A stretch of DNA of 53,674 nucleotides from a virus: IMG/VR virus record IMGVR_UViG_3300022723_000142, positions 1 through 53,674 of that record; one strand, given 5' to 3'. Positions within the stretch are counted from its first letter, which is position 1; each line of letters begins with the position of its first letter. The notes under the pieces are model-generated. The model worked only from the letters and a program-made list of their open reading frames with translations. It was not told the DNA's origin and made no database searches. Both the position numbers and the translations under genes were made by a program. Shown here piece by piece: positions 4,123-25,041 of this stretch.

Positions 4123-4570
4123 CTTCATCTTAGCTTCATATTAAAGCTTTTTCGCCATTTCTGAAAAACACCTAACTGTCACAAGGGGCTTTTATGAAGC
4201 TAAGATGAAGTAAGTATCAAAATATACAGTTTTAGGGGGAGGGTGGCACACTTCTGAGGGGGGGTGGCACACTTCGAAAATAGCAAGTGTGCCACCCCTA
4301 AAGCATTGCTGTGTAAGGATTTTGCTTAGGGTGTCACACATGGCACACTTCTTTCTGATTTAATTTACTAGACAAAATTCTCTATATTAGAGAAAAGGCA
4401 ACTGGCACAGTACTACACGCCATAGGAGATCTACTATGCACGCTCCGACTCAGATGAAGTGTGACACCTGTGCCACCCCTCTAAGAAATGCTTTAGTAGC
4501 AGTAGTTTGAGGGTGGCACACTTGCTATTTTCGAAGTGTGCCACCCCTAAAGTTTTGTGCCACCCGGTAT
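4123..4570. repeat. Non-coding structured module A: TGGCACA-box cluster, two 38-bp hairpin palindromes, AT-rich core; inverted homologue of 24612..25041
   Basis: Boxes GGGTGGCACACTTC at 4241, 4262 and 4511. Inverse boxes at 4285, 4534 and 4557. Composite box 4329-4351 with an imperfect inverse at 4456-4479. Hairpins at 4261-4298 and 4511-4547. 18-bp perfect inverted repeat 4123-4140/4193-4210. 65-bp run 4320-4384 identical to the reverse complement of module B. Confidence 0.9.
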
Positions 4571-4599
4571 TTACGTAGAAAACTCCAGGAGTGGTCAAC

Positions 4600-4630
4600 A
4601 AAAAAACCGCTGATGGGGGAGCATCAGCGG
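4600..4630 (-). terminator. Rho-independent terminator for the 4671..4862 gene
   Basis: CCGCTGATG (4607-4615) pairs with CATCAGCGG (4622-4630). The A run at 4600-4606 gives a U tract on the - strand. Confidence 0.7.
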
Positions 4631-4670
4631 CGCAGTGTGGCTAAGTTAGGCGGCTTGCGGCAAAGTCGAT

Positions 4671-4862
4671 CTATGCGGCGAAGTCGAACAGAGCATCAAG
4701 GTAGGTTCGACTCGCCCGGCGATCACCGCTGCCATTCTGCATTAAGAACAGCGACAATGCCGCTTGGAATGCGCGGTCTTGGCTCCACCCTGGATGTTTA
4801 TCTAGATATTGCTGCATCGATTCGTGGAGTTCGTTGGGAATTTGAACATGTAAACTGATCAT
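4671..4862 (-). CDS. DUF2811-like small protein (family otherwise typical of cyanobacterial genomes)
   Basis: 63 aa. 'IPNELHESMQQYLDKHPGWSQDRAFQAALSLFLMQNG' matches my recollection of the DUF2811 signature (..ELHESL..FL..HP.WDQDR...AALSLFLLQN). Confidence 0.5.
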   Translation of the reverse strand: MISLHVQIPNELHESMQQYLDKHPGWSQDRAFQAALSLFLMQNGSGDRRASRTYLDALFDFAA

Positions 4863-4914
4863 TTTGTTTTCCTGTAGTGAGGTGCTTTCAATCCCTAAGA
4901 GGTAGATGGGATTT

Positions 4915-5133
4915 TTATTGCTTGACTTCTAGCCGATTTGAGAATTGGGGGACTCTCTTGTTGACGGGGATTAACTGAAGCTCCCCTGAAGTGGAATCAA
5001 GGAAGGCTTTATCCCCTACATAGCGTGCCCTTATATGTTCTTTAGGCCTAGGTTTGACGTAATGGACAATCTTCTGAGATTGTCCCCTGATGTTGAACCG
5101 AGCGATCGCTCGGTATAGTTGCTCCGTCATCAC
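4915..5133 (-). CDS. Hypothetical protein
   Basis: 72-aa ORF in a co-oriented three-gene block; no recognisable motif. Confidence 0.5.
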   Translation of the reverse strand: MMTEQLYRAIARFNIRGQSQKIVHYVKPRPKEHIRARYVGDKAFLDSTSGELQLIPVNKRVPQFSNRLEVKQ

Positions 5134-5199
5134 TCAAAACCTCATAAACAACTCAAACAACCCAGGGCAGCGATCGCACTGCCCAGCATCATCGCCAAA

Positions 5200-5660: not shown

Positions 5661-5684
5661 GCAGATAGTTAATTGAGGCGGCAG

Positions 5685-5948
5685 ATGAAAGTCATCTACG
5701 AAGTTGAAGTATTAGGTTTGGGAAGCAAAATCCAACAGTGCCGTCGATTGAGCGGGAAGTCTGTAGAAGAACTGGCTGACGCTGTTGGGATTTCTCGGCA
5801 AACCTGGTATGCGATTGAGAATGAGCAGCATTCAGTCCATGTAGATGTTATTCGGCAGATTGAAGCTCAGTTAAGAGAATCGGCGATTGCCCTAAGCATT
5901 TTGCCGTTGTTTGGTGTTGACATTAAGGAGAGCAGTCGTGACGTTTAA
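5685..5948 (+). CDS. XRE-family helix-turn-helix transcriptional regulator
   Basis: 'RRLSGKSVEELADAVGISRQTWYAIENEQHSVHVDVIRQIEAQL' is a typical Cro/CI-type HTH. The ORF track begins at TTG 5673; the ATG at 5685 has the better SD. Confidence 0.7.
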   Translation: MKVIYEVEVLGLGSKIQQCRRLSGKSVEELADAVGISRQTWYAIENEQHSVHVDVIRQIEAQLRESAIALSILPLFGVDIKESSRDV

Positions 5949-5987
5949 ATCAATCCCGCCGCCAAAGTCTCAGGAGAGCGAGCGCTG

Positions 5988-6707
5988 ATGTCCTTATACA
6001 CCGAAACCGACGGGCGGCTCATCATCCCCCCGCCGTCGCACATCTCATACACAAGCTGGCCAAGACGGGAATTTGTTAGTCGAACTGGCCAGTCTTGCTG
6101 GGAGGGTTTAGCGGATTATGTCGACAGCCTCAAAGTCAAGCTGTCGGTCACTCAGCGGCGTTTTGAATACCTTCGTGACCATCCCAACCAAACGCAGGAG
6201 AACAAAAAGGCTCAGGCGCGTTTTCTAAAAGAGCGAACCCATCTAGCCATGTGCCTGGATCATTATGAGCTGGTGCTGAGTAAGCAGACTAAGCGGTCTA
6301 GCGACTTAGCGCTAAAACATGCAGCCACTGCCGCTACGATGGCCAGAGAGAACAGAGAGTACATCTCGGAGCATTATAAAGCGATAAAAAAGTTCGATAA
6401 ATGTCGGGGGCACATCAAGGCCAACCGCGAAGCAATCTCTCGCAATCAGTTGGCCATTCGAGGGTTCATAGACAACGCTCACCGGCAATCCGCGATCGCT
6501 CACCAGGTAGAACAGAATTCTGATGCGATTGTGAGCTACGCAAAAACTTTGCAGGGAGTTCAGCGCAATGTGGCTGAGTTAAAGCAGTTGCTCAACGCGC
6601 GACCAGTTCAAAAGGTGAAGCCGCCCCCGCCCCGTGAAGAACCGTGGAACGCATCAGGGTATCGACCGCCTGATTTGGCGGGAACGTACATATTAGATAG
6701 AGAGTGA
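5988..6707 (+). CDS. Hypothetical, predicted coiled-coil protein
   Basis: 239-aa ORF. Overlaps the next gene's start by 4 nt, suggesting translational coupling. Confidence 0.6.
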   Translation: MSLYTETDGRLIIPPPSHISYTSWPRREFVSRTGQSCWEGLADYVDSLKVKLSVTQRRFEYLRDHPNQTQENKKAQARFLKERTHLAMCLDHYELVLSKQTKRSSDLALKHAATAATMARENREYISEHYKAIKKFDKCRGHIKANREAISRNQLAIRGFIDNAHRQSAIAHQVEQNSDAIVSYAKTLQGVQRNVAELKQLLNARPVQKVKPPPPREEPWNASGYRPPDLAGTYILDRE

Positions 6708-7288
6708 TCATGGAAGTAAGTGAATTAATTGAAAAATATCAGGCTGGGGAACGTGACTTCAGCTGGGCAGACCTCTGCGGGGCAAACCTCAGCCGGGCAA
6801 GCCTCTGCGGGGCAAACCTCAGCTGGGCAAACCTCTGCAGCGCAAGACTCAGCCGGGCAAACCTCAGCCGGGCAAGACTCAGCCGGGCAAACTTCTGCGG
6901 GGCAGACCTCTGCGGGGCAAACCTCAACGGGACAGACCTCAGCGGGGCAGACCTCTGCGGGGCAGACCTCTGCGGGGCAAACCTCTGCCGGGCAAGCCTC
7001 AGCCGGGCAAACCTCTGCGGGGCAAACCTCTGCGGGGCGCGAGGCAACGGCAGAGAGATTTGCTCTGCACAAATAGGGAAATACGATCTAATTTGGACGG
7101 CTGAAAATCTATGGATCGGCTGTCAGTCTGCACCATTAAATGTTTGGTGGAATCGAACCCCGGAGGACATTGAGCAGATAGAACAAGGCGCAGGCGCGCT
7201 CTGGACAAAACACAGGGACTTTATTTGGCAAATGGTCGACCAATTTCCGGCTACACCCACCAATGGCAAAGCCCCTAAAAAAGCGTGA
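6704..7288 (+). CDS. Pentapeptide-repeat protein
   Basis: About 18 consecutive A(D/N)LXX units ('ADLCGANLSRASLCGANLSWANLCSARLSRANLSRARLSRANFCGADLCGANLNGTDLSGADL...') followed by a ~70-aa non-repeat C-terminus. Confidence 0.85.
   Translation: MIMEVSELIEKYQAGERDFSWADLCGANLSRASLCGANLSWANLCSARLSRANLSRARLSRANFCGADLCGANLNGTDLSGADLCGADLCGANLCRASLSRANLCGANLCGARGNGREICSAQIGKYDLIWTAENLWIGCQSAPLNVWWNRTPEDIEQIEQGAGALWTKHRDFIWQMVDQFPATPTNGKAPKKA
6761..7037 (+). repeat. 15-nt periodic tandem repeat encoding the pentapeptide units
   Basis: Reiterated gcaaacctc(a/t)gc(c/g)gg units. The repeat creates shadow ORFs in three other frames. Confidence 0.9.
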
Positions 7289-7330
7289 TCGTCACTCTGG
7301 TATCGAATTCGGGCACAACAAAAACCTCTT

Positions 7331-7369
7331 CTCATTACTGCAAAAGTGCAACACTTTTGCAGTAATGAG
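7331..7369. terminator. 18-bp perfect hairpin between convergent genes (possible bidirectional terminator)
   Basis: CTCATTACTGCAAAAGTG (7331-7348), loop CAA, CACTTTTGCAGTAATGAG (7352-7369). No U tract on either side. Confidence 0.5.
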
Positions 7370-7420
7370 GCTAGTAGCTAGTGACAAAAGATAGTGACAC
7401 GATTAGCAGCACCCAGAACT

Positions 7421-7468
7421 AAATTGCGGCTATCCCCGTCCTCTATAGGGCGGGGATAGCCGCGATTT
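7421..7468. terminator. Long hairpin immediately downstream of the - strand XRE gene
   Basis: AAATTGCGGCTATCCCCG pairs with CGGGGATAGCCGCGATTT (one mismatch). Ends 4 nt from the stop at 7472. Confidence 0.5.
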
Positions 7469-7471
7469 AGT

Positions 7472-7732
7472 TCATACTCTCCAATACTCCATATCAACAC
7501 CCAATGCTTCACACAATGGCGATAGCATCGTGGCCGGAATGCTGCCTGTAATTTCCCAATAGCTTATAGTTTGCTGCATCACTTTGACTTGCTTTCCAAG
7601 TTCAGACTGGGACAAGCCAGCAACCGCCCTAGCCCCCTTTAGTTTTTGTTTAAGCCGTGATTCTGGTGTGAAACCATTTGGGACGGGACACCATTCATCG
7701 ATATTGCCACTGGGGTTAATGTCTTTTACCAC
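7472..7732 (-). CDS. XRE-family helix-turn-helix transcriptional regulator
   Basis: 'LKGARAVAGLSQSELGKQVKVMQQTISYWEITGSIPATMLSPLCEALGV' is a typical HTH_3 pattern. Divergent from the head operon. Confidence 0.7.
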   Translation of the reverse strand: MVKDINPSGNIDEWCPVPNGFTPESRLKQKLKGARAVAGLSQSELGKQVKVMQQTISYWEITGSIPATMLSPLCEALGVDMEYWRV

Positions 7733-7803
7733 ATTGATATTACGTAATTCAATCCCATTCTAGTTTATTCCGTAGGGTTTGTTTTCATACTGCCTACTCT
7801 TGA

Positions 7804-8982
7804 GTGGTATGTGATTCGGCTTGCTGCATGGCCTTTCGTTGCGATCGCACCCCTATCGAAAATTATGAAGAACTGCCCGATGGCCGCTTGCGTGTTCGGG
7901 CAACATTTTCGCGTGTGGGCCCACTTGACTACATCCGCAGTGATGGCACGGTCCAGACTGAGTATTTAGATGCCGACGAACTATTCCGAGCTGATTCACT
8001 AAAGACCGCCGGACTAGCACCCGTCACTTTGGGGCATCCCGACGAAGGTTTTGTTACTCCAAAAAACTGGCGTAAATATGCGGTCGGAGCGTCCGGTTCT
8101 ACTATCACGGCTAACCGTCAAGATGGCTTGGTTGAAGTGGTGTTTCTCGTTGGCGATGAAGACGCGATCGCGGCTATCAAAGAAAAGAAGGCGACTCAAG
8201 TTAGCGCGGGCTATTCCACCACAGTTGAGCAGCGCAGCGATGGAAAGTTTTACCAAACCAATAGGCAATACAACCATTTGGCGCTAGTCGAGCGGGGTCG
8301 AGCAGGCCCTGACGTAAAAGTTCATTTTGATGGACTTGATGATTTTGCAGTGCAAACAGATGACTCTCAGGAGGTCAAAACCGACATGGCCAAATATAAG
8401 GGCATGGAAATGGATGAGAAGGCGGTGGATGCTTTTAAAGAAATGGAAGCTGACATGGCCAAGATGAAAGAAGACATGAAAGGCATGAAGTCGAAAAGCG
8501 ATGCTGCGGAAAGCTTCACCATTGACAAGCTCCAGGGCGAGATTGATGGTTACAAAACTCGCATTGATGCGCTTGAAAAGGAGCGTGATGGGCGTCTGGA
8601 TGCCGATGCAGTTGCCGCTCTGGCGACTCAGCGCTTGAATGCGTTTGAAGAGTGCAAGAGCTTCATAAAAGATGCCAAGTTTGACGCGGCTATTGAGCCG
8701 ATTGAGTGGCGTAAAGCGGCGATCGCTAGCGTCAATTCCAAGCTAAATCTAGATGGCAAGTCAGACGACTACGTGAACGGGATGTTCTCTATTCTGTCCA
8801 CGGCAACCGAAGCGGCAACTGTCAACGCTGAAAGCGAAGGCGCGAAGACATTTAAGGACGTTTTAGACGCGGCGGGTACGGCAGGCCATAGCGGTACCAG
8901 TGGTGAGCGTGCCGACGAAGATAAACAAGATGTTGACGATATTGCGGCGATCAATGGGCTCTTTTCTGGAGGTAACAAGTAA
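7804..8982 (+). CDS. Prohead protease/scaffold-like protein (DUF2213-like N-terminal domain, acidic coiled-coil C-terminus)
   Basis: 392 aa and first gene of the head block. 'VTLGHPDEGFV', 'VSAGYS' and 'YNHLALVERGRAG' resemble the DUF2213 family as I recall it. The C-terminal half is K/E/D/M-rich and scaffold-like. GTG start; the alternative is ATG 7828. Confidence 0.5.
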   Translation: MVCDSACCMAFRCDRTPIENYEELPDGRLRVRATFSRVGPLDYIRSDGTVQTEYLDADELFRADSLKTAGLAPVTLGHPDEGFVTPKNWRKYAVGASGSTITANRQDGLVEVVFLVGDEDAIAAIKEKKATQVSAGYSTTVEQRSDGKFYQTNRQYNHLALVERGRAGPDVKVHFDGLDDFAVQTDDSQEVKTDMAKYKGMEMDEKAVDAFKEMEADMAKMKEDMKGMKSKSDAAESFTIDKLQGEIDGYKTRIDALEKERDGRLDADAVAALATQRLNAFEECKSFIKDAKFDAAIEPIEWRKAAIASVNSKLNLDGKSDDYVNGMFSILSTATEAATVNAESEGAKTFKDVLDAAGTAGHSGTSGERADEDKQDVDDIAAINGLFSGGNK

Positions 8983-9488
8983 TGCCAATCACGACTTATA
9001 ACGACCTATCCGATGAGGGTCTGGTTGCGGGACAACTGCATACCAGCATCGTTAACGGTGCGAAACTGTCTGGCTATAACACGAGCGGCGGCGTTTTGGC
9101 GGCCGGTTTTGGCGCGGTCTGGACGGGCACCGGGAAGGAAGTTTCTTTGCCTTCTGGCGCTGGCAACTTTGCAGGTATCCTCACCCTGCCCTCTGTCGAG
9201 TATCGCGCTAGCTATTCCATTGATGCGGGTTCGCGCTTTGGCTGGCCAGATGATTACGAAGTGGCCTTGGCGGTTACTGATTCTTACGTAGTTTACGTAG
9301 ATGATACGGTGGCGGTTGGTGACCCGGTTTATTTCAATCACACTGCATCGTCTTCGGTGGTCGGCACATTCCGTAATGATGCCAATTCCTCAAATGCTCA
9401 GCTAATCAGCGGAGCTAAATTTATGTCAGCAGCGACGGGCACTGATTCCGCGCTAGCGCTGGCGATTGTAAATCTCAGTGCTAACTAA
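8982..9488 (+). CDS. Hypothetical head-module protein (possible decoration/cement protein)
   Basis: 168-aa ORF between the scaffold-like and capsid-like genes; its start overlaps the preceding stop. Confidence 0.4.
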   Translation: MPITTYNDLSDEGLVAGQLHTSIVNGAKLSGYNTSGGVLAAGFGAVWTGTGKEVSLPSGAGNFAGILTLPSVEYRASYSIDAGSRFGWPDDYEVALAVTDSYVVYVDDTVAVGDPVYFNHTASSSVVGTFRNDANSSNAQLISGAKFMSAATGTDSALALAIVNLSAN

Positions 9489-9502
9489 GGAGGTCTTTAA
9501 CC

Positions 9503-10483
9503 ATGCCTACTGGTGGAATTTTTCAGTCCCGGCATCTAGAGCGACGGGTGCGTCAGGTACTCCGGGCGCGGCGGCGAATGTTGCCGTTCTTCGGCGGCAA
9601 CCTGGTTCCAACTACTACTGATTTGCAACCGGGCACCCGCGAGCTAGTTCAAGACAAAGTGCTTGAATTTGGTGAGGCTCAGCTTATGGCGCAAGACGCT
9701 GATGATGTGCCCCTCGTTGAGATTAATGCCCGTGAAGACCGTTACCGGGTAGTGATGCCCGTTGCCGGTTATCCGGTCCGTTTTGGCGAAACGCTCGCGG
9801 AGAACGTCGCACGAGCCAACGGGATTCAGTACAACCCGACCGACATCCGCGCATCGGCTGTAATCCGAGCCATTGAAGAGCGGGCGAATAAGTTTACAGC
9901 GGTCGGCGATTCCACCATGAGCATCACTGGAATGCTCAACGATGCGAACGTTACGCCTGTTGATAGCAGCTTTGATCCGTTTGATGCGGGTTCCACTGCT
10001 GATGACATTGCTGATTGGTTTCTAACTTTGGTTGGGGATATCTTCAAGGATTCCAATAATGTCGAGTACCCCAACACGGCGTTAATCAGCACACCCTTAC
10101 ATGAGTTAATGACGCGGCGACGGATGCCGGATTCATCCGAAACCATCCTCAGCTATGTGGTCAAAACACAACAGGCGCGCTCCGCATTAATGCCGGGGCA
10201 ACGGTTGGAGAATATCGTTCCTTTGGTTGAAAGTGGGTCTGATTATCTCGAAGCTAACGGTGTAGAGACGGGCGGTACCAATAAAGATCGCATCGTGCTC
10301 TATCCGCTGGATGGCGAAGTGGTCGAGAGGCATATGATGTCGGGCGCGATCTCAGCGTTCCCTGATGACTGGACAGTGAACAAGGGAGCCCGGAAAATCT
10401 ACCCGATGTACTCCTTCCTGTCTCAGGTGATCATCAAGTTTCCCGGTGCATTCTCTTACATTAAGCACGCGAAGGAGGCGTAA
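9503..10483 (+). CDS. Major capsid protein candidate
   Basis: 326 aa, strong SD (AAGGAGG at 9487), position after protease/scaffold, size typical of HK97-fold capsid proteins. Confidence 0.55.
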   Translation: MPTGGIFQSRHLERRVRQVLRARRRMLPFFGGNLVPTTTDLQPGTRELVQDKVLEFGEAQLMAQDADDVPLVEINAREDRYRVVMPVAGYPVRFGETLAENVARANGIQYNPTDIRASAVIRAIEERANKFTAVGDSTMSITGMLNDANVTPVDSSFDPFDAGSTADDIADWFLTLVGDIFKDSNNVEYPNTALISTPLHELMTRRRMPDSSETILSYVVKTQQARSALMPGQRLENIVPLVESGSDYLEANGVETGGTNKDRIVLYPLDGEVVERHMMSGAISAFPDDWTVNKGARKIYPMYSFLSQVIIKFPGAFSYIKHAKEA

Positions 10484-10487
10484 TTGA

Positions 10488-10877
10488 ATGCCTCAAATCG
10501 TGATTTTCAAACCGGGAAATTGTTACCCGCCACTTAACCCGCAAGTTGGAATAGGCTTTGACCGACTACGGCTGAAGCCTGGGGCCAACCATATCAGCGA
10601 TGAACAATTCAATGTTTTGACGGCACATCCGAGCTATCAAAGCTACGTTGACCGCAAAGCGCTGATTGTCCATCACGCCGAAAAAGAGGTGCAGGCGGTC
10701 CCTCTTTCAGAAACACCGACCAACCTGGCAGGCTACAACGTGGATGACGCCGAAGACATCATCGACAACACTCATGATGTTGATGTACTGAAACGCTGGC
10801 TAGATAATGAACCCCGCAAAACGGCACGGACTGCCCTCAATCAACGAATCAAAGACCTACAAGGAGGTGATGCATAA
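10488..10877 (+). CDS. Hypothetical head-module protein
   Basis: 129-aa ORF, tightly packed with its neighbours. Confidence 0.55.
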   Translation: MPQIVIFKPGNCYPPLNPQVGIGFDRLRLKPGANHISDEQFNVLTAHPSYQSYVDRKALIVHHAEKEVQAVPLSETPTNLAGYNVDDAEDIIDNTHDVDVLKRWLDNEPRKTARTALNQRIKDLQGGDA

Positions 10878-11260
10878 TGGCTGTCGCTATGCAACGAATC
10901 GTAGAGGCTAATGCGCCTTTACTCATTAATCACTATCAGCCCAGTGGTGGTAATGAGGCATTTTTCATTGCGCCCTACGACCTAACTATAAAAGAGGTGC
11001 GCTATGCCCACGGCACCGCTGAAGGTGGCGCGTCAAATGTGCAGATTGAGCGACTCCAAGGCACCGAGGACGTGACGGCAGGTGACGACCTGCTGAGCAC
11101 AGCTCTTGATGGCAACGGGACCGCAAACACTGTGCAAACGGGCAACCTGGTTGGCAGCGCTGTTACCACTCTAAGTGCGGGCGATCGCTTAGCGGTTTAC
11201 TACTCAGCCAGTACAACTGTGGCCGAGGTTGCTATTTCAATTGTCGCCGAGAAAGCTTAA
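10877..11260 (+). CDS. Hypothetical head-module protein
   Basis: 127-aa ORF; ATG overlaps the previous stop (TAATG). Confidence 0.55.
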   Translation: MAVAMQRIVEANAPLLINHYQPSGGNEAFFIAPYDLTIKEVRYAHGTAEGGASNVQIERLQGTEDVTAGDDLLSTALDGNGTANTVQTGNLVGSAVTTLSAGDRLAVYYSASTTVAEVAISIVAEKA

Positions 11261-11622
11261 TGGCTATTACCACAGATTCTTTTCAGTCCGCGTTCCCTGA
11301 ATTTAGCGATACATCCATCGCGACCATTCAGGCACTTATTACGCGGGCTGAATTGCGGGTGGCGACGGCTGCGGCACTGGGAACAACTGAGGGGTTGCGA
11401 GATGAGTTGGTTGGGCTGTTTACGGCTCATTTGCTAACTATCAGCGATCGCTCATCCCAATCGGTAGGGGCGGGCGCAGTGGAAGAAATTGACATTGATG
11501 ATTTCTACCGTGTTCGATTTTCCCGTGATGGCAGCGGTGGCATGGGCATTGAATCAACGTCCTACGGCCAACAATATTCAGCACTGCTTAATCAAATTGT
11601 GATCCCTATTCGGATTTTGTGA
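11260..11622 (+). CDS. Head-tail connector candidate (DUF4054-like)
   Basis: 120 aa. The N-terminus 'FQSAFPEFSDTSIATIQALITRAELRV' resembles the DUF4054 opening motif as I recall it. Confidence 0.4.
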   Translation: MAITTDSFQSAFPEFSDTSIATIQALITRAELRVATAAALGTTEGLRDELVGLFTAHLLTISDRSSQSVGAGAVEEIDIDDFYRVRFSRDGSGGMGIESTSYGQQYSALLNQIVIPIRIL

Positions 11623-11623
11623 C

Positions 11624-12927: not shown

Positions 12928-12985
12928 GTCTCACATTGTAGTAAATGCAATTTGAGAATGCGACTAAAGTCGCCGTTCGTTTTTC

Positions 12986-13211: not shown

Positions 13212-13214
13212 TAG

Positions 13215-17195: not shown

Positions 17196-17205
17196 AGTGA
17201 TCGCC

Positions 17206-18061: not shown

Positions 18062-18132
18062 TGTTGGCGATCTCTGTTGCCCTGCTGATCATTTTGATTT
18101 GAACGAATGAAAACCTTTCCGGAGAACGACCG

Positions 18133-18393
18133 GTGACTATTGAACGCGAAAAGCAACTGCTTGAAGAAATTCTCGACTCTTACGGCCTTGAGCCAATCGT
18201 AAACGGCTTGATGGTGCGCTATTCCCTTGATGAGGTTCAGACTGCTTTATCAGGTACGCCGTGTCCCTGGGAAGTCGAAAGCGATCGCGACCTGTGCGAT
18301 TCAATTATCTCCGCCTGCCAGCAGCCAAATACGCCCGATACAGGATACATGCACCCAACGGAGGGTTGGGTATCAAGCAACTGGCCTAGCTAA
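18133..18393 (+). CDS. Hypothetical protein
   Basis: 86-aa ORF with a GTG start. Confidence 0.4.
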   Translation: MTIEREKQLLEEILDSYGLEPIVNGLMVRYSLDEVQTALSGTPCPWEVESDRDLCDSIISACQQPNTPDTGYMHPTEGWVSSNWPS

Positions 18394-18445
18394 TCCCCCT
18401 CAATCAGTTTCCACGCCTCTTGAGGGGGGCATCCACCGTTACCCA

Positions 18446-19165
18446 ATGGACACAGCCATTATGAACCGACTACACCTGTTACTTACTGCCGGGGCCGCGA
18501 TCTCCCTGGCCAGCTCATCCGCGATCGCCAATGAACCTCCCGTCATTGATGACCGCATTCAAATGATTTACGACAATATCGAAGCATACCAACAGCTTGC
18601 CCTCGATGAATATGGCGTACCTGCATGGCAAGCCTTACCGCCTGCCAGCCGCCCTGATCTGGCTTTCCGCCCTGCCTGCCGCCAGCTCACCTATGGACAG
18701 ATTGAGGGTGAGCACGTTTGGCACTGGGATGGTGAACTGATCTACCGCTCGCCTAAAATATTGGACGCTGCCGACGCGGGCCTTTGTAAACGGGGGGCAA
18801 CTCACGCCGTCGAAGTACCCAAAGTATTGACCGCCGATGTGTGGTCACAATTCGAGAGCGCGATCGCGGATACGGGGCGGGCCGTTGCCGTCATCCCTGA
18901 GAGGGAAGTGGTGGAAGTGGTGGACGAAACCCCAAAGCCACCACAAGAACCCGTCGCCACCACTGCCCAGCCATCGACAGAAAGCCGTCAATTATTTCCT
19001 TTTATTTGGGTTGGGTTGGGCGCTGTTGCCTTTGCTGTTTTTGGCTGTTCACTGCGCAAAGGCGATAACCGGAAACGCATTTCTAAGCCGGCAACAGCCA
19101 CCACAAAAACGCCACAAGATCCGCCGCAAGAACACACCGAAATTACATACGACTTCGAGTTATAG
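18446..19165 (+). CDS. Secreted/membrane-anchored protein (signal peptide plus C-terminal TM helix)
   Basis: MDTAIMNRLHLLLTAGAAISLASSSAIA|NEPP has an AXA-type signal peptide. C-terminal hydrophobic 'LFPFIWVGLGAVAFAVFGCSL'. The track ORF from 18227 overlaps the previous gene and is probably over-extended. Confidence 0.5.
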   Translation: MDTAIMNRLHLLLTAGAAISLASSSAIANEPPVIDDRIQMIYDNIEAYQQLALDEYGVPAWQALPPASRPDLAFRPACRQLTYGQIEGEHVWHWDGELIYRSPKILDAADAGLCKRGATHAVEVPKVLTADVWSQFESAIADTGRAVAVIPEREVVEVVDETPKPPQEPVATTAQPSTESRQLFPFIWVGLGAVAFAVFGCSLRKGDNRKRISKPATATTKTPQDPPQEHTEITYDFEL

Positions 19166-19268
19166 CGCTGTGAGTGAGTGTGAGCACTCACAGTGAGTGC
19201 TCACAGATGCGCTGTGAGTGCCTTGTGAGTCGGCAGTTATCGCCCTGTAACCCCTATTTGGTGAACCC

Positions 19269-19781
19269 ATGAGATTAGACTTTGACGACTTAACCAACAC
19301 GCAACAAACCGCCCCTAAAGAACTGCTTTCTGAAAAAATTATGGGGCAAGTAAAAATTGCTTTTTTCGGAGTAGTGACGCTGACCTGTTTTGGGCTGGGA
19401 TTGAGCCAAGCTTTCAGCCCAGCCGCTCGACAAATCCGCTCCGAGATTCAGCAGCAGGAACAGCAACAAACTCGAGAATTAACGCTGCAGCAGCAACAGC
19501 AGCGCCATGGCCAGCAAGCCCGGCAGATTGCCGAAGAGCGCTATCGCGAGGGGTGCTTACTGGTTTACACCCTCGATGCCGATGGGAATGTGATTTCCCT
19601 GTACGAAGGCATGGCGGTAGTGGACTCGACGACGAATCAGCCCTTAGCCGATGGCACTACGGTTTGTGACCCCAACGGTGCAACCGCAGTCCTTGAGAAC
19701 GGGGGCAAGGTTGGCGTGATTGCCGTGACGCCTGAAAGCGCCATGGTTCAGCAGTTAATTGCAGAGGGTAAACTCCGATGA
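19269..19781 (+). CDS. Single-pass membrane protein with Q-rich coiled coil
   Basis: TM 'VKIAFFGVVTLTCFGLGLSQAF' followed by 'QQQEQQQTRELTLQQQQQRHGQQ'. Confidence 0.55.
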   Translation: MRLDFDDLTNTQQTAPKELLSEKIMGQVKIAFFGVVTLTCFGLGLSQAFSPAARQIRSEIQQQEQQQTRELTLQQQQQRHGQQARQIAEERYREGCLLVYTLDADGNVISLYEGMAVVDSTTNQPLADGTTVCDPNGATAVLENGGKVGVIAVTPESAMVQQLIAEGKLR

Positions 19782-20470
19782 CGAAAGCTAAGTATGGCGA
19801 CGAGCAAACCTTGTATAACCCTGGCAACGGGGGCAAGTATCAAGCTCTATTCTGGTTTTTGCGGTTGGCGCTGCTGTTGGTTTTGTGTGGGGTAATTATC
19901 CGAAATATCGAACCCTATGCCCAATGGTCGCAGGCGTGGCTTGGTTCCAATATGACGGGCTGGTGGACGCTGATACCCGGTGCCACTTGGGTAGTGGACA
20001 AGGTTTATCGGTTCTTTGGTATCGTGCTTTGGGCATTATTTCAAACCTTGGAAACGATCCCGCTGTTCCTGCTGGGCACTCGTTTCGGGTTGGGGGTGCT
20101 GATTGCCAGCTATGAGCAGCAGGATCAGCAGCAACGCAAGATTGACACCTATCCCACCGATGACGCGGTGTTGACGTTCCTTAAAAAGAAATACAACGCG
20201 ATGGGCTTACGGGCTCTCGATTTCTTCCGCATGGCAGCGCCGTTTGCCTATGCAGTGGACCTAATTGTGTGTTGGCAAATCTTTCCGCCGCTAAAAGACG
20301 GATACACCTGGTCTCAAGTCGTCATGGGTTGGAATTGGGGCGGTATCGCGTGGAGCAACGTGGTGAGCCTGGTCGTTACCCTGCTCGCCTTTGAGATGGT
20401 CGTCCTGTGTTGGATGCGTACCTCTGAAATGATTTTCACGATTCGCCGGGGGATTAAATCAAATGCGTAG
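19778..20470 (+). CDS. Polytopic membrane protein
   Basis: 230 aa with several hydrophobic segments (e.g. 'ALFWFLRLALLLVLCGVII', 'FFGIVLWALFQTLETIPLFLLG', 'VVSLVVTLLAFEMVVLCW'). ATGA overlap with the upstream gene. Confidence 0.6.
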   Translation: MTKAKYGDEQTLYNPGNGGKYQALFWFLRLALLLVLCGVIIRNIEPYAQWSQAWLGSNMTGWWTLIPGATWVVDKVYRFFGIVLWALFQTLETIPLFLLGTRFGLGVLIASYEQQDQQQRKIDTYPTDDAVLTFLKKKYNAMGLRALDFFRMAAPFAYAVDLIVCWQIFPPLKDGYTWSQVVMGWNWGGIAWSNVVSLVVTLLAFEMVVLCWMRTSEMIFTIRRGIKSNA

Positions 20471-21953
20471 AGAAACTAAGCCAGAACTAAAGAAAGCCGC
20501 TATCGAAGCGGTACGGACGCAATCACACCTTGCCCTATCGGATCAGTACCTTGATACCTCTAAAACCTTGCCCCTATGGTTGGGAGCCGGGTTGGGGTCG
20601 CTGGTATTCATCGGGAATTTGGGCGCGATCGGGGTGGGTTTGTTGTTTGTGGGGGAGCGCTTATTCTCCTATCGTACCTACAGCCGCAAACGTGCCCAGC
20701 TCGCCACCACGCGCAGTGCTAGCGCCATTATTGAGCCGCTAAGGCGCAATCCCGTGGAGTACTCCTATGCGAAAGCCATCATGCAAGCCCGTGGGGATTT
20801 GGCGCTGCTGATACCGGATGACGATGAAGATGACGAAACTGATTCCCCTACGGTGGACGTGGCCAGCTCCACTGTTAGCGAGTCGGGCCTCTTGCGTGAC
20901 GTGCCGATGACGTGGGTACCTAAAGCGCGGGGGCAAGGTGAACACCTGGCAGTCATCGGCCTGTCGGGAGCATCTAAAACCACCACGCTGCTAAAGGCTT
21001 GTGAGGGCATCAATACGCCGATCATCTACGTCACCATTAAGGATGCAGACACCTCGCCGCCTAACTGGGAAGCTTACAAACTGAGCAAAACAGCCGGGGC
21101 ATACTACCTTGCCCAGCTATGCCACATCTGCGATCGCCTCGAGGATATGCTCACGGGGGGCATAGAGCATCACTTGATTGTGGATGAGGCATTGCAGCAG
21201 ATTGATCAAGCCAAGGACTCCGAGAAACTAGCAGAGGGCAAGCCTTACAAGGGCACTGCCAGCCGGTTTGAATCGCTCATAAAGTGCTATATCCGCTCGG
21301 GGCGGAGTGATGGGCAGCTTATTGGTTTGGTGAGTCAATCTCCCAATGGGACGGATTTGTTTGGCAGCGCTAAGACCATGCAAGGGTTAAAGCTCATTCT
21401 GTGCGCTGGTGAATATAGCTCAAATAAATTCCAATTCTTTACCGCATGGGCTAAGCAATTATTTGGCGGTCTGGTGAATGCCGATATTGAATCAGAGCTT
21501 AGCCAGGTTAAGGCTGGTTTCTGGCATCTGACAAATACGGGTGATGGGTTGGCATTGAACGAAACCATTCAATCCGACGTGGTGATGGTGGCTTGTGCTG
21601 AATGCCCAGCCGCGCATATAGGGGACGAGGTACCCGATAAACCTGTCGGGCCTTCCCCCATGAGGCAGAAAGCCCAGCGCTTTATCAATGAGAATGAGCA
21701 ACCCAGCAAAGCCGCTTGGGAGCAGGGGCAAGAACGGGGCGCGATCGCCTATGCCTACTGCGCAGTGCTGCAAGATGCCCTTGCGGAAGACGTGCCCTTA
21801 GCCGGGTTTGGCGGCAACTCTAAATTTGCGTGGCGGTTGCATAAGGCTGGGGTGATTGAGAACCGTAGCCGTGAGCAGTGGTGGCCACACCTCGAAGCGC
21901 TAATCGATAAAGGCTATCTCAATGCCGACTCAGATAAATTGTGGATTGATTAG
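20463..21953 (+). CDS. Membrane-anchored P-loop NTPase (FtsK/HerA/T4CP-like architecture)
   Basis: N-terminal hydrophobic 'LPLWLGAGLGSLVFIGNLGAIGVGLLFVG', Walker A-like 'VIGLSGASKTTT' and Walker B 'HHLIVDEA'. Overlaps the upstream gene by 8 nt. Confidence 0.55.
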   Translation: MRRETKPELKKAAIEAVRTQSHLALSDQYLDTSKTLPLWLGAGLGSLVFIGNLGAIGVGLLFVGERLFSYRTYSRKRAQLATTRSASAIIEPLRRNPVEYSYAKAIMQARGDLALLIPDDDEDDETDSPTVDVASSTVSESGLLRDVPMTWVPKARGQGEHLAVIGLSGASKTTTLLKACEGINTPIIYVTIKDADTSPPNWEAYKLSKTAGAYYLAQLCHICDRLEDMLTGGIEHHLIVDEALQQIDQAKDSEKLAEGKPYKGTASRFESLIKCYIRSGRSDGQLIGLVSQSPNGTDLFGSAKTMQGLKLILCAGEYSSNKFQFFTAWAKQLFGGLVNADIESELSQVKAGFWHLTNTGDGLALNETIQSDVVMVACAECPAAHIGDEVPDKPVGPSPMRQKAQRFINENEQPSKAAWEQGQERGAIAYAYCAVLQDALAEDVPLAGFGGNSKFAWRLHKAGVIENRSREQWWPHLEALIDKGYLNADSDKLWID

Positions 21954-21988
21954 CCGATACAATCGTGGCTGATCTGGATTGCTATGAG

Positions 21989-22017
21989 CTACCCCGCCTT
22001 TTGAGAAGGCGGGGTAG
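21989..22017. terminator. Bidirectional hairpin terminator between convergent genes
   Basis: CTACCCCGCCTT (21989-22000), loop TTGAGA, AAGGCGGGGTAG, located between the stops at 21953 (+) and 22023 (-). Confidence 0.65.
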
Positions 22018-22022
22018 TTCAT

Positions 22023-24524
22023 CTAAACCCAGCCATGACGACGATTAAGTAAGTCAGCATCATTTCGAGTGCGATGGTATTCGAGGCTGCACTTGCAATT
22101 CACAAAACATATCCGAGTTCCCGGCATTGACATTTGCCCCCTCAGTACAATCCCCTTGCCAGTTTCAGCGACACATTCTGAGCAGTGTTCGGCAACGCCC
22201 AACCTATTGCTGACATAGGGAAACTCAGCCACGGGATGGGCGGCATCCTGCGCCTGGTTATATAGCAGCTCGGCATCATGCACATAGAGTTTAGCCCGCG
22301 CCGAGATCGCCCCGACCGACATCACACCGCTCAATACTTCGGCACTGAACCGCCGCAGGTAGTCGTACTGCCTTAATAGTTCATCCTTTACGGTTTCTCG
22401 ATAGCGCGGCTCAATATTGCGTCGGTTGCCAAATCCGAACACGAAGAACAATGCTGCTGCCCCTGCAATGATTTCGGCTAGCCGTTCTTCCCATTGCGCC
22501 GCATCGATATCGCCCGACTCTAGCAGGGATGTTAGAGCGTCAATCTGCCCCTCATAACTATCGAGTTCAGCGGTGAGCAGTTCTAGAATCTCATCAGGCG
22601 TCACCCGGTCATCGCCATCGCGGTATTGGCCTGCATCTTCATCCCATTGCCACCCTTGTTCATCGGCCAGCGATCGCACCTCAGCCCAATCAATATCGCT
22701 CAACTCTTGAAAGTAGGCAACGCTGGGCAATCGAACGAAGTCCGGCTGAAAAAGGTCAGTATCAAACTTTTTTGCATGTTCCTCTCCCCCGTCCGCTCTT
22801 GTTGATTCAGCAGTTTTGTAATTCGCAAGCTCTTTTAATGTTAGCTCTCGCACTTCGCCCATAAACTCTTTGGGCATAGCTGAAAGATAAATGGCCTTAG
22901 CTTCATCAATTGATGAAGCACCAATAACCATCTTTTCTTCGTCGAATTTACCATTGATAACTTGGTCAATAGCAAATACTTTTTTGCTGGCCAGGTCAGT
23001 GCCCACATAAACATCAACAGCCATCCCGTCAGAGCCTTTTGTCTTTTGGAAATGCCCATAGCCAGCTTGCAAAACCTTGCCATGCCGCTTATCAAACGGA
23101 AAATACTGAAGTCCAACCCTAAAACCGTTCCAGTCAATGACCCTTTTTGTTGGGGTTGCTTCATCATTCCTATCGTTAGGCGCTGCTGTAGCCACTTCGA
23201 TTACATTCTCAATGTCTTGGCCAGTCGAGATCGCCATGCGCACCTCATCAGCGCTCACGGCCCCCGACTCAATCAGCAACTTAAATGTCTCGGCTTGCCC
23301 CTTCTTGTTTTCCTGCTTCTCCTGTGGCGTTTCGGTGTAGATACTGGGATATTCAATTTCCCAGTTACTGGGCACTGTGCCCAACGCCTCAAAGATGGCG
23401 TGGAATACGATGCGGTGGTTGCTCATAAAATCCTGAGCTTGCCAAGCCTGCACTTGTTCGGCATATGCCCGCGTTTCAGCGCCGCCGCTATCCGCCAACG
23501 CCGATTTACCCACAGTCCCCCAAATCTTATAGAAAGGTAACCCGGTGGCCGCCGTCAGCTCATCTACAATCGACTGAAAGTTCTCCTTGACGCCAGTGAA
23601 GGAGCGCTCTTGAAAGTCGCTGTTGCTGGTCTGGGCATCTTGCACCAACACCTTATGCAGACTCATCATCTGGGCGATCGAGTTCATCATATTGGTGAGT
23701 GCCGTTTCACCGCCTGGGCCAGCCAGAACATCTACCAGACCATCGATAGAAACCTTAATCAGCGAATAGGTTTGTAGCCCTTTTGAGATAGCATCCTTGG
23801 CCATATAGTGTCTATTGAAAATCTCAAATATTCCCTGAATGACGGAGTCGTGGCCTGCATCGCCTTCTAACTGTTGATCATAGGGGTGAATCTCAGCACC
23901 ATCAAACACCAGCACTCGGCTATGGTGGATGCGCTGGTTAAACCTGAAATCCTGGTTAGCATTGTCTCTGCCCTCCGTGCGGGCGATGCGGTAAAACTCC
24001 GGGTCGCTAGGATTGATAGTTGTGAAATCTGGTCGCAGCTGGTAACGATCCAGCACTGAAAAACCCTCAAAACTTCGCACCTTTCGCAGCGGCTTTTCTG
24101 GATTCTCAGAACCATTCACCCTCAGCACAATATATGCGCGTCCAAACAGGTCGGCATATTGCTTCGCCTTACGGAATGCGTCATGGCCTGACATTTGCCG
24201 ACTATAAGGGGATGCATTCTGAGAGCCCTGGTTATAGATGGCGATCGCTGCTGCTGCGTCCTGTTCGTCTCCCCCCTCATGGATGACCAACTCAACCCCT
24301 TTACGTGTCATGTCGTTAGCGGGGGCATCGATGATGCGGCGAATTAGCCACGAGCCACGGTATAGCGATCGCAACTCCACTTCAGACAGCAGCCGCACCT
24401 GCCCAACCTGAGTTGAGGTGAACGGGTCTCGGCCATGAACCCCCATACCCGTTGCCGTATTTCCTAGCAGCGAGTTACTGAGGGCGTTGGCTAGATTATC
24501 AAACCGCAGGTCAGTGTCAATCAT
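22023..24524 (-). CDS. Portal protein candidate with long C-terminal extension (possible head-morphogenesis fusion)
   Basis: First large gene downstream of terL on the same strand. The track ORF reaches 24623, but the first 33 codons run into the repeat module, so ATG 24524 (MIDTDLRFDNLANAL...) is the more plausible start. The C-terminus ends in a Cys cluster 'CSECVAETGKG...CFVNCKCSLEYH'. Confidence 0.55.
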   Translation of the reverse strand: MIDTDLRFDNLANALSNSLLGNTATGMGVHGRDPFTSTQVGQVRLLSEVELRSLYRGSWLIRRIIDAPANDMTRKGVELVIHEGGDEQDAAAAIAIYNQGSQNASPYSRQMSGHDAFRKAKQYADLFGRAYIVLRVNGSENPEKPLRKVRSFEGFSVLDRYQLRPDFTTINPSDPEFYRIARTEGRDNANQDFRFNQRIHHSRVLVFDGAEIHPYDQQLEGDAGHDSVIQGIFEIFNRHYMAKDAISKGLQTYSLIKVSIDGLVDVLAGPGGETALTNMMNSIAQMMSLHKVLVQDAQTSNSDFQERSFTGVKENFQSIVDELTAATGLPFYKIWGTVGKSALADSGGAETRAYAEQVQAWQAQDFMSNHRIVFHAIFEALGTVPSNWEIEYPSIYTETPQEKQENKKGQAETFKLLIESGAVSADEVRMAISTGQDIENVIEVATAAPNDRNDEATPTKRVIDWNGFRVGLQYFPFDKRHGKVLQAGYGHFQKTKGSDGMAVDVYVGTDLASKKVFAIDQVINGKFDEEKMVIGASSIDEAKAIYLSAMPKEFMGEVRELTLKELANYKTAESTRADGGEEHAKKFDTDLFQPDFVRLPSVAYFQELSDIDWAEVRSLADEQGWQWDEDAGQYRDGDDRVTPDEILELLTAELDSYEGQIDALTSLLESGDIDAAQWEERLAEIIAGAAALFFVFGFGNRRNIEPRYRETVKDELLRQYDYLRRFSAEVLSGVMSVGAISARAKLYVHDAELLYNQAQDAAHPVAEFPYVSNRLGVAEHCSECVAETGKGIVLRGQMSMPGTRICFVNCKCSLEYHRTRNDADLLNRRHGWV

Positions 24525-24611
24525 GGAAAGTAACAGGAAGGTTCCCTCTAGTTTACTAAATACAGAAACACTACCTATACAACAGGCAAACTTGATTAGA
24601 GACCCTGTTTT

Positions 24612-25041
24612 ATACGGTGGCACAAAACTTTAGGGGTGGCACACTTCAAAAATGGCAAGTGTGCCACCCCTAAGCCCTTGATATACAAGGATTCTTTAGG
24701 GGGGTGTCACACATGGCACACTTCATCTGGGTCGGAGCGTGCAGAGTAAATTTTCTATGACGTGTAATGCTGTGCCAGTTGCCATTCTCTCTTTTAGAGA
24801 ATTTTGTCTAGTAAATTAAATCAGAAAGAAGTGTGCCATGTGTGACACCCTAAGCAAAACTCTTGATATGTATAGCTTTGAGGGTGGCACACTTCGAAAA
24901 TAGCAAGTGTGCCACCCCCCTGAAGTGTGACACTAAAATGGTATATTTAGATACTTTTCTCAGCTTAGCTTCATAAAAGGGCGTTGTGACAATTTGGAGC
25001 TTAGGAGAAATGTATTATGGCACAATACATGTGCCAGTTGC
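24612..25041. repeat. Non-coding structured module B: inverted homologue of module A, located between terL and the portal gene
   Basis: Hairpins at 24633-24670 and 24882-24918. Perfect 23-bp inverted repeat 24702-24724/24828-24850 around a 103-bp AT-rich core. About 10 TGGCACA/TGTGCCA boxes. The reverse complement aligns with 4150-4565 at roughly 80-90% identity by eye. Confidence 0.9.
25009..25030 (+). promoter_or_regulatory. TGTATTATG..ATACA palindromic motif (copy 2)
   Basis: AATGTATT-ATGGCAC-AATACAT. Related to the copies at 53543 and 51683 and contains a TGnCACAAT extended -10-like string. Confidence 0.35.

Follow-up and report, generated by a model that had tools for sequence, protein, structure and literature searches.

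P4 has two separated cis sites, ori and crr, that carry the same iterons; in crr these are direct repeats, and the site lies about 4.5 kb from ori. P4 alpha combines a primase, an SF3 helicase, and a C-terminal DNA-binding domain in one polypeptide (PMC2777425). In SaPI origins, 6 to 12 iterons are found immediately downstream of the rep ORF, arranged as opposed iterons on each side of an AT-rich center, and they are read by the C-terminal winged helix of Rep (PMC9371898). Phage SPP1 has two similarly organized initiator-bound sites. One of them, oriR, breaks the conserved late gene order, and it has been proposed to stall the replication fork and favor concatemer-forming replication (PMC6316719, PMC3485210, PMC5737612).

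The window, that is, the whole stretch of 53,674 nucleotides that was analyzed, holds the genome of a 53.5-kb cyanophage-like siphovirus with an A+T content of 50%. A repeat search of the whole window found a 127-nt terminal direct repeat, which marks the assembly as circular. Besides this terminal repeat, the only repeat pair of such size in the window is formed by modules A and B. The preliminary description had put the two at about 430 bp, 80 to 90% identical, inverted, and roughly 20 kb apart. Measurement bears this out: the modules are about 400 nt each, inverted, 79 to 83% identical, and both intergenic, with inner edges 20,051 nt apart. The search resolved the pair into three collinear inverted blocks (Table 1), and aligning A (4168-4568) with the reverse complement of B (24616-25020) in MAFFT gave 318 identical columns out of 401, or 79% with gaps included. 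We consider it reasonably probable that A and B represent a duplicated iteron-type binding array built like a replication origin, and we regard module A as a putative origin of replication.

The segment bracketed by the modules had been described as holding regulators, head genes, a fiber block, a membrane/ATPase operon, and the portal gene. Pfam and PHROG searches did find an HTH regulator, a head protease, a decoration/cement protein, the major capsid protein, and the portal there. However, the fiber block and the membrane/ATPase operon, placed at 13.2 to 22 kb, drew zero Pfam or PHROG matches. Selfish elements in the genome are a TnpB gene, a TnpB fragment, and an intein bearing a LAGLIDADG domain.

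Table 1. Positions of the modules, their elements, and neighboring genes in the window
Feature	Position	Strand	Remarks
Conserved 388-aa protein	56-1222	+	Between Dda-like helicase and primase; acidic C-terminal tip DDDDWL
Primase-helicase, 898 aa	1302-3998	+	DUF3854 Toprim-like, DUF5906 D5/P4-alpha-type SF3 helicase, C-terminal domain of about 150 aa
Terminator, left of module A	4024-4051	+	Convergent with the one on the right
Module A, non-coding iteron module	4168-4568	+	Directly downstream of primase-helicase gene
Second box ACTGTCACA, module A	4175-4183
A left iteron set	4242-4351	+	4242-4254 (+), 4263-4275 (+), 4284-4296 (-), 4330-4342 (+), 4339-4351 (+)
A palindrome 1	4261-4298
A center, candidate DNA-unwinding element	4345-4400	.	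73% A+T; richest 50-nt window at 99.96th percentile
Conserved box ACTGGCACA, module A	4401-4409		Just past A+T-rich center
A right iteron set	4456-4564	-	4456-4468 (-), 4465-4477 (-), 4512-4524 (+), 4533-4545 (-), 4552-4564 (-)
A palindrome 2	4511-4546
Terminator, right of module A	4606-4631	-	Convergent with the one on the left
Xre-type HTH gene	5673-5948		1.1 kb from module A
TnpB-type transposase gene	11731-12927		Inside bracket
Portal protein, InPase domain, 833 aa as called	22023-24524	-	Immediately downstream of module B
Module B, inverted second copy	24616-25020	-	Between terL and portal gene
B portal-side iteron set	24616-24724	+	24616-24628 (+), 24635-24647 (+), 24656-24668 (-), 24703-24715 (+), 24712-24724 (+)
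B portal-side palindrome	24633-24670
Conserved box in B, TGTGCCAGT on + strand	24771-24779 and 25030-25038
B center	24780-24835	.	70% A+T; 99.7th percentile
B terL-side iteron set	24828-24934	-	24828-24840 (-), 24837-24849 (-), 24883-24895 (+), 24904-24916 (-), 24922-24934 (-)
B terL-side palindrome	24882-24917
Terminator-like hairpin	about 25057-25087		Between terL and module B
Large terminase (terL)	25130-27775	-	Carries intein with LAGLIDADG domain
Inverted block 1	4394-4564/24616-24786		171 nt, 83%
Inverted block 2	4259-4394/24785-24920		136 nt, 83%
Inverted block 3	4156-4235/24933-25012		80 nt, 79%

The iteron is the 13-bp sequence GGTGGCACACTTC. Called at up to 3 mismatches, it occurs ten times per module in the order ++-++ | --+--, with opposed sets of five surrounding the A+T-rich center. 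Four of the ten copies build two perfect palindromes, one on each side of the module, each consisting of two inverted iterons with a 13- to 14-bp stem. These elements are strongly concentrated in the modules. The other 52.5 kb contains only 1 site with 2 or fewer mismatches to GGTGGCACACTTC, and 14 of the 15 genome sites of the motif GTGKCACAC lie inside the modules, where 0.8 are expected. A separate conserved box is present five times in the genome, four of them in the modules, and it is kept in relatives whose iterons differ. No DnaA boxes were found.

This arrangement is close to that of the SaPI/PICI origins. The array directly follows a primase/helicase ORF, with the first iteron of A 244 nt past the stop codon, and the ten iterons of module A fall within the range of 6 to 12. 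Half of them lie on each side of the AT-rich center in opposite directions, their sequence is element specific, and the adjoining protein joins primase and SF3-type helicase modules. Unlike SaPI iterons, which are 5 to 6 bp long, those described here measure 13 bp, and the use of four of the ten in perfect palindromes is a further difference. In addition, the carrier is a 53.5-kb siphovirus rather than a satellite, with two module copies per genome.

The modules might instead represent a duplicated gene for a structured non-coding RNA. Terminators do bound module A, and its predicted single-strand self-structure is strong (z = -14). However, inverted iterons yield such a predicted structure trivially, and Rfam gave no match at the gathering score, with only chance-level ones at E<1. 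One palindrome has its loop in opposite orientations in the two modules, the trace of a past small-scale inversion, and in B this abolishes a long-range pairing that is possible in A. Across lineages, single iterons without a pairing partner also change together with the paired ones, a pattern for which base-pairing does not account. We therefore find an RNA gene very improbable.

The binding array reading requires a protein to recognize the iterons, and the primase-helicase is our candidate initiator. Its DUF3854 and DUF5906 domains score above the Pfam cut-offs, and PHROG DNA-primase families match it. As in P4, a single polypeptide combines a primase, an SF3 helicase, and a C-terminal domain, and the genome has two separated iteron sites. 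P4 crr differs from module B in its direct repeats and in its distance of about 4.5 kb from ori. The structure of the P4 C-terminal domain has been solved as a winged helix (1KA8), to which the domain here has no significant Foldseek match in the PDB; a winged helix like that of SaPI Rep is a candidate fold for it. The model of this 154-aa domain (pLDDT 87) ends in a helix-helix-beta-hairpin; its best Foldseek hit had an E value of 0.08, and IRF/ORC-type winged-helix-like matches appeared only at E values of 0.4 to 1.1. A sequence search of the PDB, SaPI Rep included, returned no match to the primase-helicase. Homologs of the protein are 45 to 83% identical; the copy in locus L086 is at 56% and that in L087 at 22%. 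Against the L083 protein, the C-terminal domain is 71% identical and the whole primase-helicase 83%, the domain being the faster to diverge; no residue-to-base correspondence with the iterons emerged. The gene is part of a replication block with a Dda-like helicase, the 388-aa protein, and PolA. The 388-aa protein has no family match in Pfam or PHROG, belongs to a gene block conserved in relatives, and is possibly an SSB-like replisome protein.

We then considered the module in related phages. All five primase-helicase homologs for which flanking sequence was fetched (L083, L084, L085, L086, and L087) have a homologous module at the position of A. These relatives are partial loci of 8 to 22 kb, and the count of one module per genome rests on them. 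The iteron differs in each lineage, with all copies altered together: it is GGTGGCCCACTTC in L083, GTGGCCC-type in L084, GGCCCTAAT-type in L085, GTCCTACCACGGAAG in L086, and TTTCGGTAT in L087. Each of these sequences clusters only in the module of its own locus. Such concerted, lineage-specific change suggests protein-binding sites that co-evolve with their protein. Module A is probably the ancestral copy.

Alternatively, the modules might be transcriptional hubs whose iterons serve a phage-encoded repressor or activator, such as the Xre-type HTH protein, as its operators. The lineage-specific repeat would then reflect immunity specificity, and module B would place the portal under the same regulator. 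Palindromes of two inverted half-sites typify operators, and HTH genes neighbor both module A and the module in L086. At homologous positions in A and B, the first iteron is overlain by a weak promoter-like site that points leftward. Since terL is followed by a terminator-like hairpin, B may have to supply the portal gene with a promoter of its own. However, the promoter-like matches score no higher than expected from shuffled sequence, and module A is enclosed by convergent terminators with no gene downstream to drive in either direction. Across the six lineages, the module keeps to the primase-helicase although its neighbors on the other side change, being small reverse-strand genes, methyltransferases, or a T5orf172 gene. 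Finally, ten sites placed symmetrically about a strongly A+T-rich center form an origin layout, not that of a promoter-operator (cf. PMC9371898). Regulatory hubs thus seem to us an unlikely account, although the most serious competitor to a duplicated origin.

Module B has a different history. In four relatives, the terL-portal junction has no module, only a gap of about 25 to 35 nt, and by this comparison B is a lineage-specific, later inverted duplicate. Weak similarity to the left flank of the L083 module suggests that B may reach about 25062; the difference is small, with 43 of 101 columns matching in B and 34 in A. The second copy is not decaying, since iteron columns are 93% identical between A and B compared to 73% elsewhere (Fisher p=1e-6), and unique changes since the duplication have accrued at similar rates, 24 in A and 31 in B. 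The iterons of B thus appear to be kept under selection, and the same protein most likely binds B as its second site. An earlier suggestion, that the keeping of two diverged modules points to selection on each of them, perhaps as a pair of origins or of regulatory hubs, is supported by this conservation of iterons over spacers and by the conserved position of the module.

An insertion of this kind could also be selfish DNA, a MITE-like or IS-derived element copied into the terL-portal gap and functionless for the phage. B is indeed an insertion relative to four relatives, in a genome that carries TnpB sequences and a LAGLIDADG intein, and module A has long internal inverted repeats (family I4). 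Unlike MITEs and IS elements, A and B have neither terminal inverted repeats nor a target-site duplication at their homology boundaries, and no dispersed copies: searches of IMG/VR, of JGI metagenomes, and of 185,579 species genomes turned up the palindrome and core as a module nowhere else. The flanks of the TnpB element lack the motif. An orthologous module fixed beside the primase-helicase in six lineages, and iterons of B that are conserved over its spacers, also speak against a functionless element, and we give this explanation a very slim chance.

As a likely second site for the same protein, B invites comparison with SPP1 oriL and oriR. Both phages are siphoviruses with two sites of the same organization, each with repeats and an AT-rich DUE; one site is at the initiator gene, and more than 10 kb separate it from the other. 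The second site breaks into a conserved order of structural genes and has transcription signals beside it, which for B means the terL/portal junction and the hairpin, and both sites are thought to bind the same initiator. The initiator of SPP1, gp38, belongs to another family and works with a DnaB-type helicase and a loader. None of these three was detected among the ORFs scanned, and the resemblance to SPP1 is therefore one of function, not homology. Furthermore, oriL lies inside gene 38 whereas module A follows its gene, and descriptions of SPP1 give its repeats as direct ones. In SPP1, experiments have established binding and function; for A and B, both are predictions from sequence.

The preliminary description had proposed the modules as a substrate for flip-flop inversion. 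On this reading, homologous or site-specific exchange between the modules would regularly flip the 20-kb segment, and the phage population would contain two isomers with different arrangements of transcription units. We found no positive evidence for this and see only a small chance of it; the observations below count against frequent inversion, although inversion may occur rarely. Like the repeats of plastids, the 2-micron plasmid, and herpesviruses, A and B form an inverted pair, here with copies of about 400 nt, on either side of a long stretch of a genome that is circular or concatemeric. Repeats that recombine frequently, such as the plastid and 2-micron inverted repeats, stay near-identical and homogenized. 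In contrast, A and B have diverged by 17 to 21%, and by 27% in the spacers, with 24 to 31 private substitutions gathered in each arm. Their longest perfectly identical run is 65 nt, which was reached in 0 of 200,000 shuffles and exceeds the expectation from average identity. This core could reflect gene conversion between copies that sometimes recombine, and it suffices for some homologous exchange; the flipped palindrome loop likewise records inversion on a small scale. However, the palindromes of A and B also match each other as direct repeats (family D2), and exchange there could delete the segment rather than invert it. The 2-micron plasmid has a dedicated recombinase of the Flp type, whereas a scan of about 50 ORFs with Pfam and PHROGs, in which small ORFs were incompletely covered, turned up neither an invertase nor a tyrosine or serine recombinase. 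The orientation of gene blocks does vary within this phage group, but the one departure from relatives, which concerns the head block versus the portal, falls within the bracket and not at the modules, so exchange between A and B cannot produce it. Inversion would also part the portal from terS-terL, its neighbors in the same orientation both in the window and in 4/4 relatives. The assembly shows a single orientation and is unlikely to have been confused by the repeat, given its 127-nt end overlap and the lack of any identical run longer than 65 nt. This phage has just one further assembly (Logan SRR23862443), in which the contigs end within the palindromes of the modules.

From the repeat architecture and its enrichment, the position beside the primase-helicase, the concerted iteron change, and a lineage-specific B with conserved iterons, we infer replication initiation as the function, along with the identity of the binding protein and the role of B. 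The primase-helicase, or another phage-encoded specificity factor, would bind the iterons, melt the A+T-rich center, load itself, and start replication, like SaPI Rep/PriRep and P4 alpha. Module B may act as a second origin. Other possibilities are a helper site resembling P4 crr, or a site bound so tightly that the fork stalls there and replication is prompted to switch to the concatemer-forming mode, the role proposed for SPP1 oriR.

The large inverted pair noted in the preliminary description is real: a repeat search returned three collinear inverted blocks, listed in the table, which form the sole large repeat pair inside the window. In a gapped alignment, module A (4168-4568) and the reverse complement of module B (24616-25020) have 318 of 401 columns (79%) in common. 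The best explanation of the feature is that an iteron-type origin module has been duplicated in an uncharacterised cyanophage lineage, which supports the two origins that the same description had offered as a fallback. Both modules are intergenic. Module A is flanked by the primase-helicase gene, with a terminator at 4024-4051, and by convergent small genes, with a terminator at 4606-4631. Enclosed by these convergent terminators, module A has no gene on either side that it could drive. Module B lies between the intein-bearing large terminase gene (terL) and the portal gene, 3′ of a terminator-like hairpin.

The modules are built from a 13-bp iteron. Of the 15 copies of the motif GTGKCACAC in the genome, 14 are in modules A and B (0.8 expected). 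Each module holds ten sites with up to 3 mismatches to GGTGGCACACTTC, in the order ++-++ followed by --+--, and the other 52.5 kb contain a single site with up to 2 mismatches. On each side of a module, two inverted iterons form a perfect palindrome with a 13- to 14-bp stem and a 10-nt loop. At the centre, A+T content reaches 73% in module A and 70% in module B, vs 50% for the genome, placing the centre in the top 0.04% and top 0.3% of 50-nt windows, respectively. A second box, ACTG[GT]CACA, occurs five times in the genome, four of them within the modules. No DnaA boxes were found. We also considered a small ORF in module A (ATG at 4436, AGGAG upstream) and rejected it because both its start codon and its ribosome-binding site are absent from B. 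Reading TGGCAC as a sigma-54 promoter failed on the missing -12 element; cyanobacteria are not known to have sigma-54.

We then located primase-helicase homologs, 83% to 22% identical, on five contigs of relatives (L083 to L087). A noncoding module of like architecture lies 3′ of the primase-helicase gene on all five. The A+T-rich centre (ACAAAAAATTCTCTAA) and the ACTG[GT]CACA boxes are retained in the four closer lineages (L083 to L086). Each lineage has its own version of the iteron in every copy, clustered only in that lineage's module. Some ten dispersed sites, unpaired ones included, have thus been replaced in concert. Binding sites co-evolving with a sequence-specific protein are expected to behave in this way, and neither RNA pairing nor chance would yield it. 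A noncoding RNA gene accordingly fits poorly, since pairing does not explain the concerted change of unpaired sites and no family matched: Rfam returned nothing meaningful in the modules, either at gathering score or at E<1. Beyond the module, the neighbouring gene is not the same in every lineage (small reverse-strand genes or methyltransferases), so the module is tied to the primase-helicase gene. In L084, the two are separated by a 318-aa gene, probably a homing-endonuclease-like insertion, that matches T5orf172 weakly. The main alternative is that the modules are an operator hub for a nearby HTH protein encoded at 5673-5948. We consider this unlikely, given that terminators enclose A and that linkage to the primase-helicase gene is fixed. 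A MITE-like element also fits poorly, as TIRs, a target-site duplication, and dispersed copies are all absent.

Similar arrangements are known. In SaPI origins, 6 to 12 iterons lie directly 3′ of the (pri-)rep ORF around an AT-rich centre, with the iterons of the two sides opposed, and a self-loading helicase reads them through its C-terminal winged helix (PMC9371898). The layout of our modules, as putative origins, matches this point for point. The P4 alpha protein has the order primase, SF3 helicase, and winged helix (PMC2777425), which we liken to that of SaPI-type initiators. Phage SPP1 provides a precedent for two copies: oriL lies at the initiator gene, and a similarly organised oriR lies about 12 to 13 kb off, where it breaks up the conserved order of late genes and has transcription signals on both sides; gp38 binds both, and oriR has been proposed to stall the fork and so bring about the theta-to-sigma switch (PMC6316719, PMC3485210, PMC5737612). 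Module B, at terL and portal, parallels oriR. Given the SaPI layout and the SPP1 precedent, module A would be the replication origin of the phage and module B a second initiator-binding site, serving as another origin, as a fork barrier, or as a helper site.

We infer that the 898-aa primase-helicase may be the protein that binds the iterons. It has a DUF3854 (Toprim-like) domain and a DUF5906 (D5/P4-alpha-type SF3) domain. Its C-terminal 154 aa have a confident predicted fold (pLDDT 87) and have diverged more rapidly than the remainder of the protein; the model of this domain had no significant match in a fold search. The full-length model was poor (pLDDT 51), likewise with no significant fold match, and searching the PDB with a primase-helicase profile gave no match. 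A conserved 388-aa neighbour protein has an acidic tip, DDDDWL, and is possibly SSB-like.

Module B appears to be a later addition. Portal homologs, 52 to 72% identical, were found on four contigs, and on all four the terL-portal gap is only about 25 to 35 nt with no module in it. This tight junction in the relatives indicates that B is a lineage-specific insertion. A 950-nt gap in the portal-bearing relative L003 was also searched and has no iteron module. Identity between A and B is 93% at iteron columns and 73% at other columns (Fisher p=1e-6). With L083 as the outgroup, A has 24 private changes and B has 31, with 86 shared. By this iteron conservation and these counts, module B is not decaying. 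Identity is a mosaic. Over a 65-nt core (4320-4384) the copies do not differ at all, a run that none of 200,000 shuffles reached, and the spacers beside the palindromes are at 57 to 70%. Either lineage-specific constraint or a gene-conversion tract could account for this. In the left flank, B matches L083 at 43 of 101 columns and A at 34 of 101, a weak hint that the flank of A was remodelled after duplication. This flank of A also carries an 18-nt inverted duplicate (CTTCATCTTAGCTTCATA) at 4125-4142 vs 4193-4210, the second site being within the module.

The proposal that the segment between the modules flips back and forth found no support. Both arms carry private substitutions, and this divergence counts against frequent inversion; a scan of about 50 ORFs turned up no recombinase; and the terL-to-portal arrangement is the canonical one, common to all relatives examined. 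Head genes converge on the portal gene in the window; in relatives L003 and L005 they are on the same strand, after portal. Because the junction 21953/22023 lies inside the bracket, exchange between A and B is not the source of this difference. The tail block is also opposite in orientation relative to terS-terL. Gene order thus shows that block inversions have taken place in this phage group, with end-points away from the modules. The 10-nt loop of one palindrome (4261-4298 vs 24882-24917; also 4511-4546 vs 24633-24670) reads in the same absolute direction in both modules. As the modules are inverted, the loop is flipped relative to its own module, a small hairpin-loop inversion, which makes the palindrome also a direct repeat of about 38 nt between A and B. 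Exchange there could delete the segment rather than invert it. Rare inversion is possible, the 65-nt identical core being long enough for some exchange. In the sole other assembly of the phage (Logan SRR23862443), contigs end inside the module palindromes. We give very little credence to a further idea, that A and B synapse as an initiator-bound pair and occasionally exchange, or that B is a programmed fork barrier. If they synapse and exchange, the 65-nt core would be a gene-conversion tract, and in a minority isomer the portal gene and head block would be turned round with respect to the replication and packaging genes. A barrier at B, right at the packaging genes, would time the switch to concatemer synthesis. 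Either synapsis or a barrier would amount to a replication-coupled switch of genome architecture in a cyanophage.

Bases 1-127 recur perfectly at 53548-53674. This direct repeat is most likely the overlap of an assembler-closed circular contig (k=127) rather than a biological terminal repeat, which puts the true length of the genome at 53,547 bp. The genome is of siphovirus type, encoding a tape-measure protein, major capsid protein, head protease, portal, and large terminase. PolA, a 5′-3′ exonuclease, a Dda-like helicase, the 388-aa protein, and the primase-helicase make up its replication block. HIP1, a cyanobacterial signature, occurs 50 times vs 0.8 expected. Together with a gene of the otherwise cyanobacterial DUF2811 family and homologs found in cyanobacterial MAGs, this indicates a cyanobacterial host. 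Cumulative GC skew tracks gene strand and carries no independent origin signal, and a search of the genome found no tRNAs.

BLAST of module A against 50,697 GenBank phage records gave no match. In IMG/VR, exact searches with the palindrome and conserved core, and searches with the lineage-invariant central pattern and a primase profile, returned nothing, and portal and primase protein scans found no relatives; by these searches, the cyanophage lineage is absent from IMG/VR. The 73 loci from a palindrome search of GTDB genomes and JGI metagenomes were all rejected as lone chance palindromes that do not resemble the module. Two unrelated loci from this search, L012 (6700-6860, a Nostoc MAG) and L078 (840-1020), have local clusters of GTGGCAC/GTGCCAC-type repeats, in L012 next to repeated TGTAGAC motifs. 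These may be binding arrays of other elements, with no homology to the module.

Several other genes deserve mention. The terL intein has a LAGLIDADG homing-endonuclease domain, and the protein is 881 aa long vs 417 to 495 aa in relatives; the L084 Dda-like helicase (970 aa) also has a LAGLIDADG domain. The complete TnpB gene sits inside the structural-gene block, between a DUF4054 gene and a 997-aa gene. The PAPS-reductase-like gene, shortened beside the second TnpB copy, is intact (392 aa) in L086. An InPase domain (polymorphic-toxin-type inorganic pyrophosphatase) is fused to the portal protein, which also has a further C-terminal domain, phrog_24776; relatives have other C-terminal add-ons, among them kinase, ADP-ribosyltransferase-like, and Hva1_TUDOR domains. 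A tandem repeat with a 15-nt period (6726-7100) encodes the pentapeptide repeats. The EAL and FHA genes are possible host-signalling takeover genes.

Coordinates of the inverted blocks, modules, iterons, and genes in the window and in contigs of relatives
Feature	Position	Strand	Remarks
Inverted block	4394-4564/24616-24786	inverted	171 nt, 83%
Inverted block	4259-4394/24785-24920	inverted	136 nt, 83%
Inverted block	4156-4235/24933-25012	inverted	80 nt, 79%
Iteron, window			GGTGGCACACTTC
Module, L083	9616-10020		iteron GGTGGCCCACTTC; ~71% alignment with A and B
Module, L085	about 4770-5180		iteron GGCCCTAAT-type
Module, L084	about 8190-8610		iteron GTGGCCC-type
Module, L086	within 3037-4090		iteron GTCCTACCACGGAAG
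Module, L087	within 2805-3837		iteron TTTCGGTAT
T5orf172-like gene, L084	7026-7982	-	between primase-helicase gene and module
DUF2811 gene	4671-4862	-	E=4.6e-25; adjoins module A
Head block	5673-21953	+	HTH, protease, cement, major capsid protein, following genes
Pentapeptide-repeat protein	6704-7288	+	PF00805, E=1.6e-28; just 5′ of head protease gene
Complete TnpB-type gene	11731-12927	-	HTH_OrfB_IS605, OrfB_IS605, Cas12f1-like TNB domains
Portal	22023-24524	-	
terL	25130-27775	-	
FHA-domain protein	44459-45208	+	
EAL-domain protein	45648-46853	+	c-di-GMP phosphodiesterase type; weak PAS match
Truncated second TnpB copy	46992-47585	-	adjoins shortened PAPS-reductase-like gene

These data offer a lesson for annotation: a large inverted repeat pair in a phage genome need not mean an invertible segment. 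Replication origins of uncultured phages are hardly ever mapped, and here an origin-type architecture is legible from sequence. The finding is of interest mainly for the co-evolving iteron series and the parallel to SPP1 oriR. A natural series of six lineages in which all iterons changed together gives a handle on origin recognition by the SF3 primase-helicase or a partner, and on how that specificity evolves. The second copy, at terL and portal, is a cyanophage parallel to oriR that could serve as a test case for the fork-stalling model of the theta-to-sigma switch.
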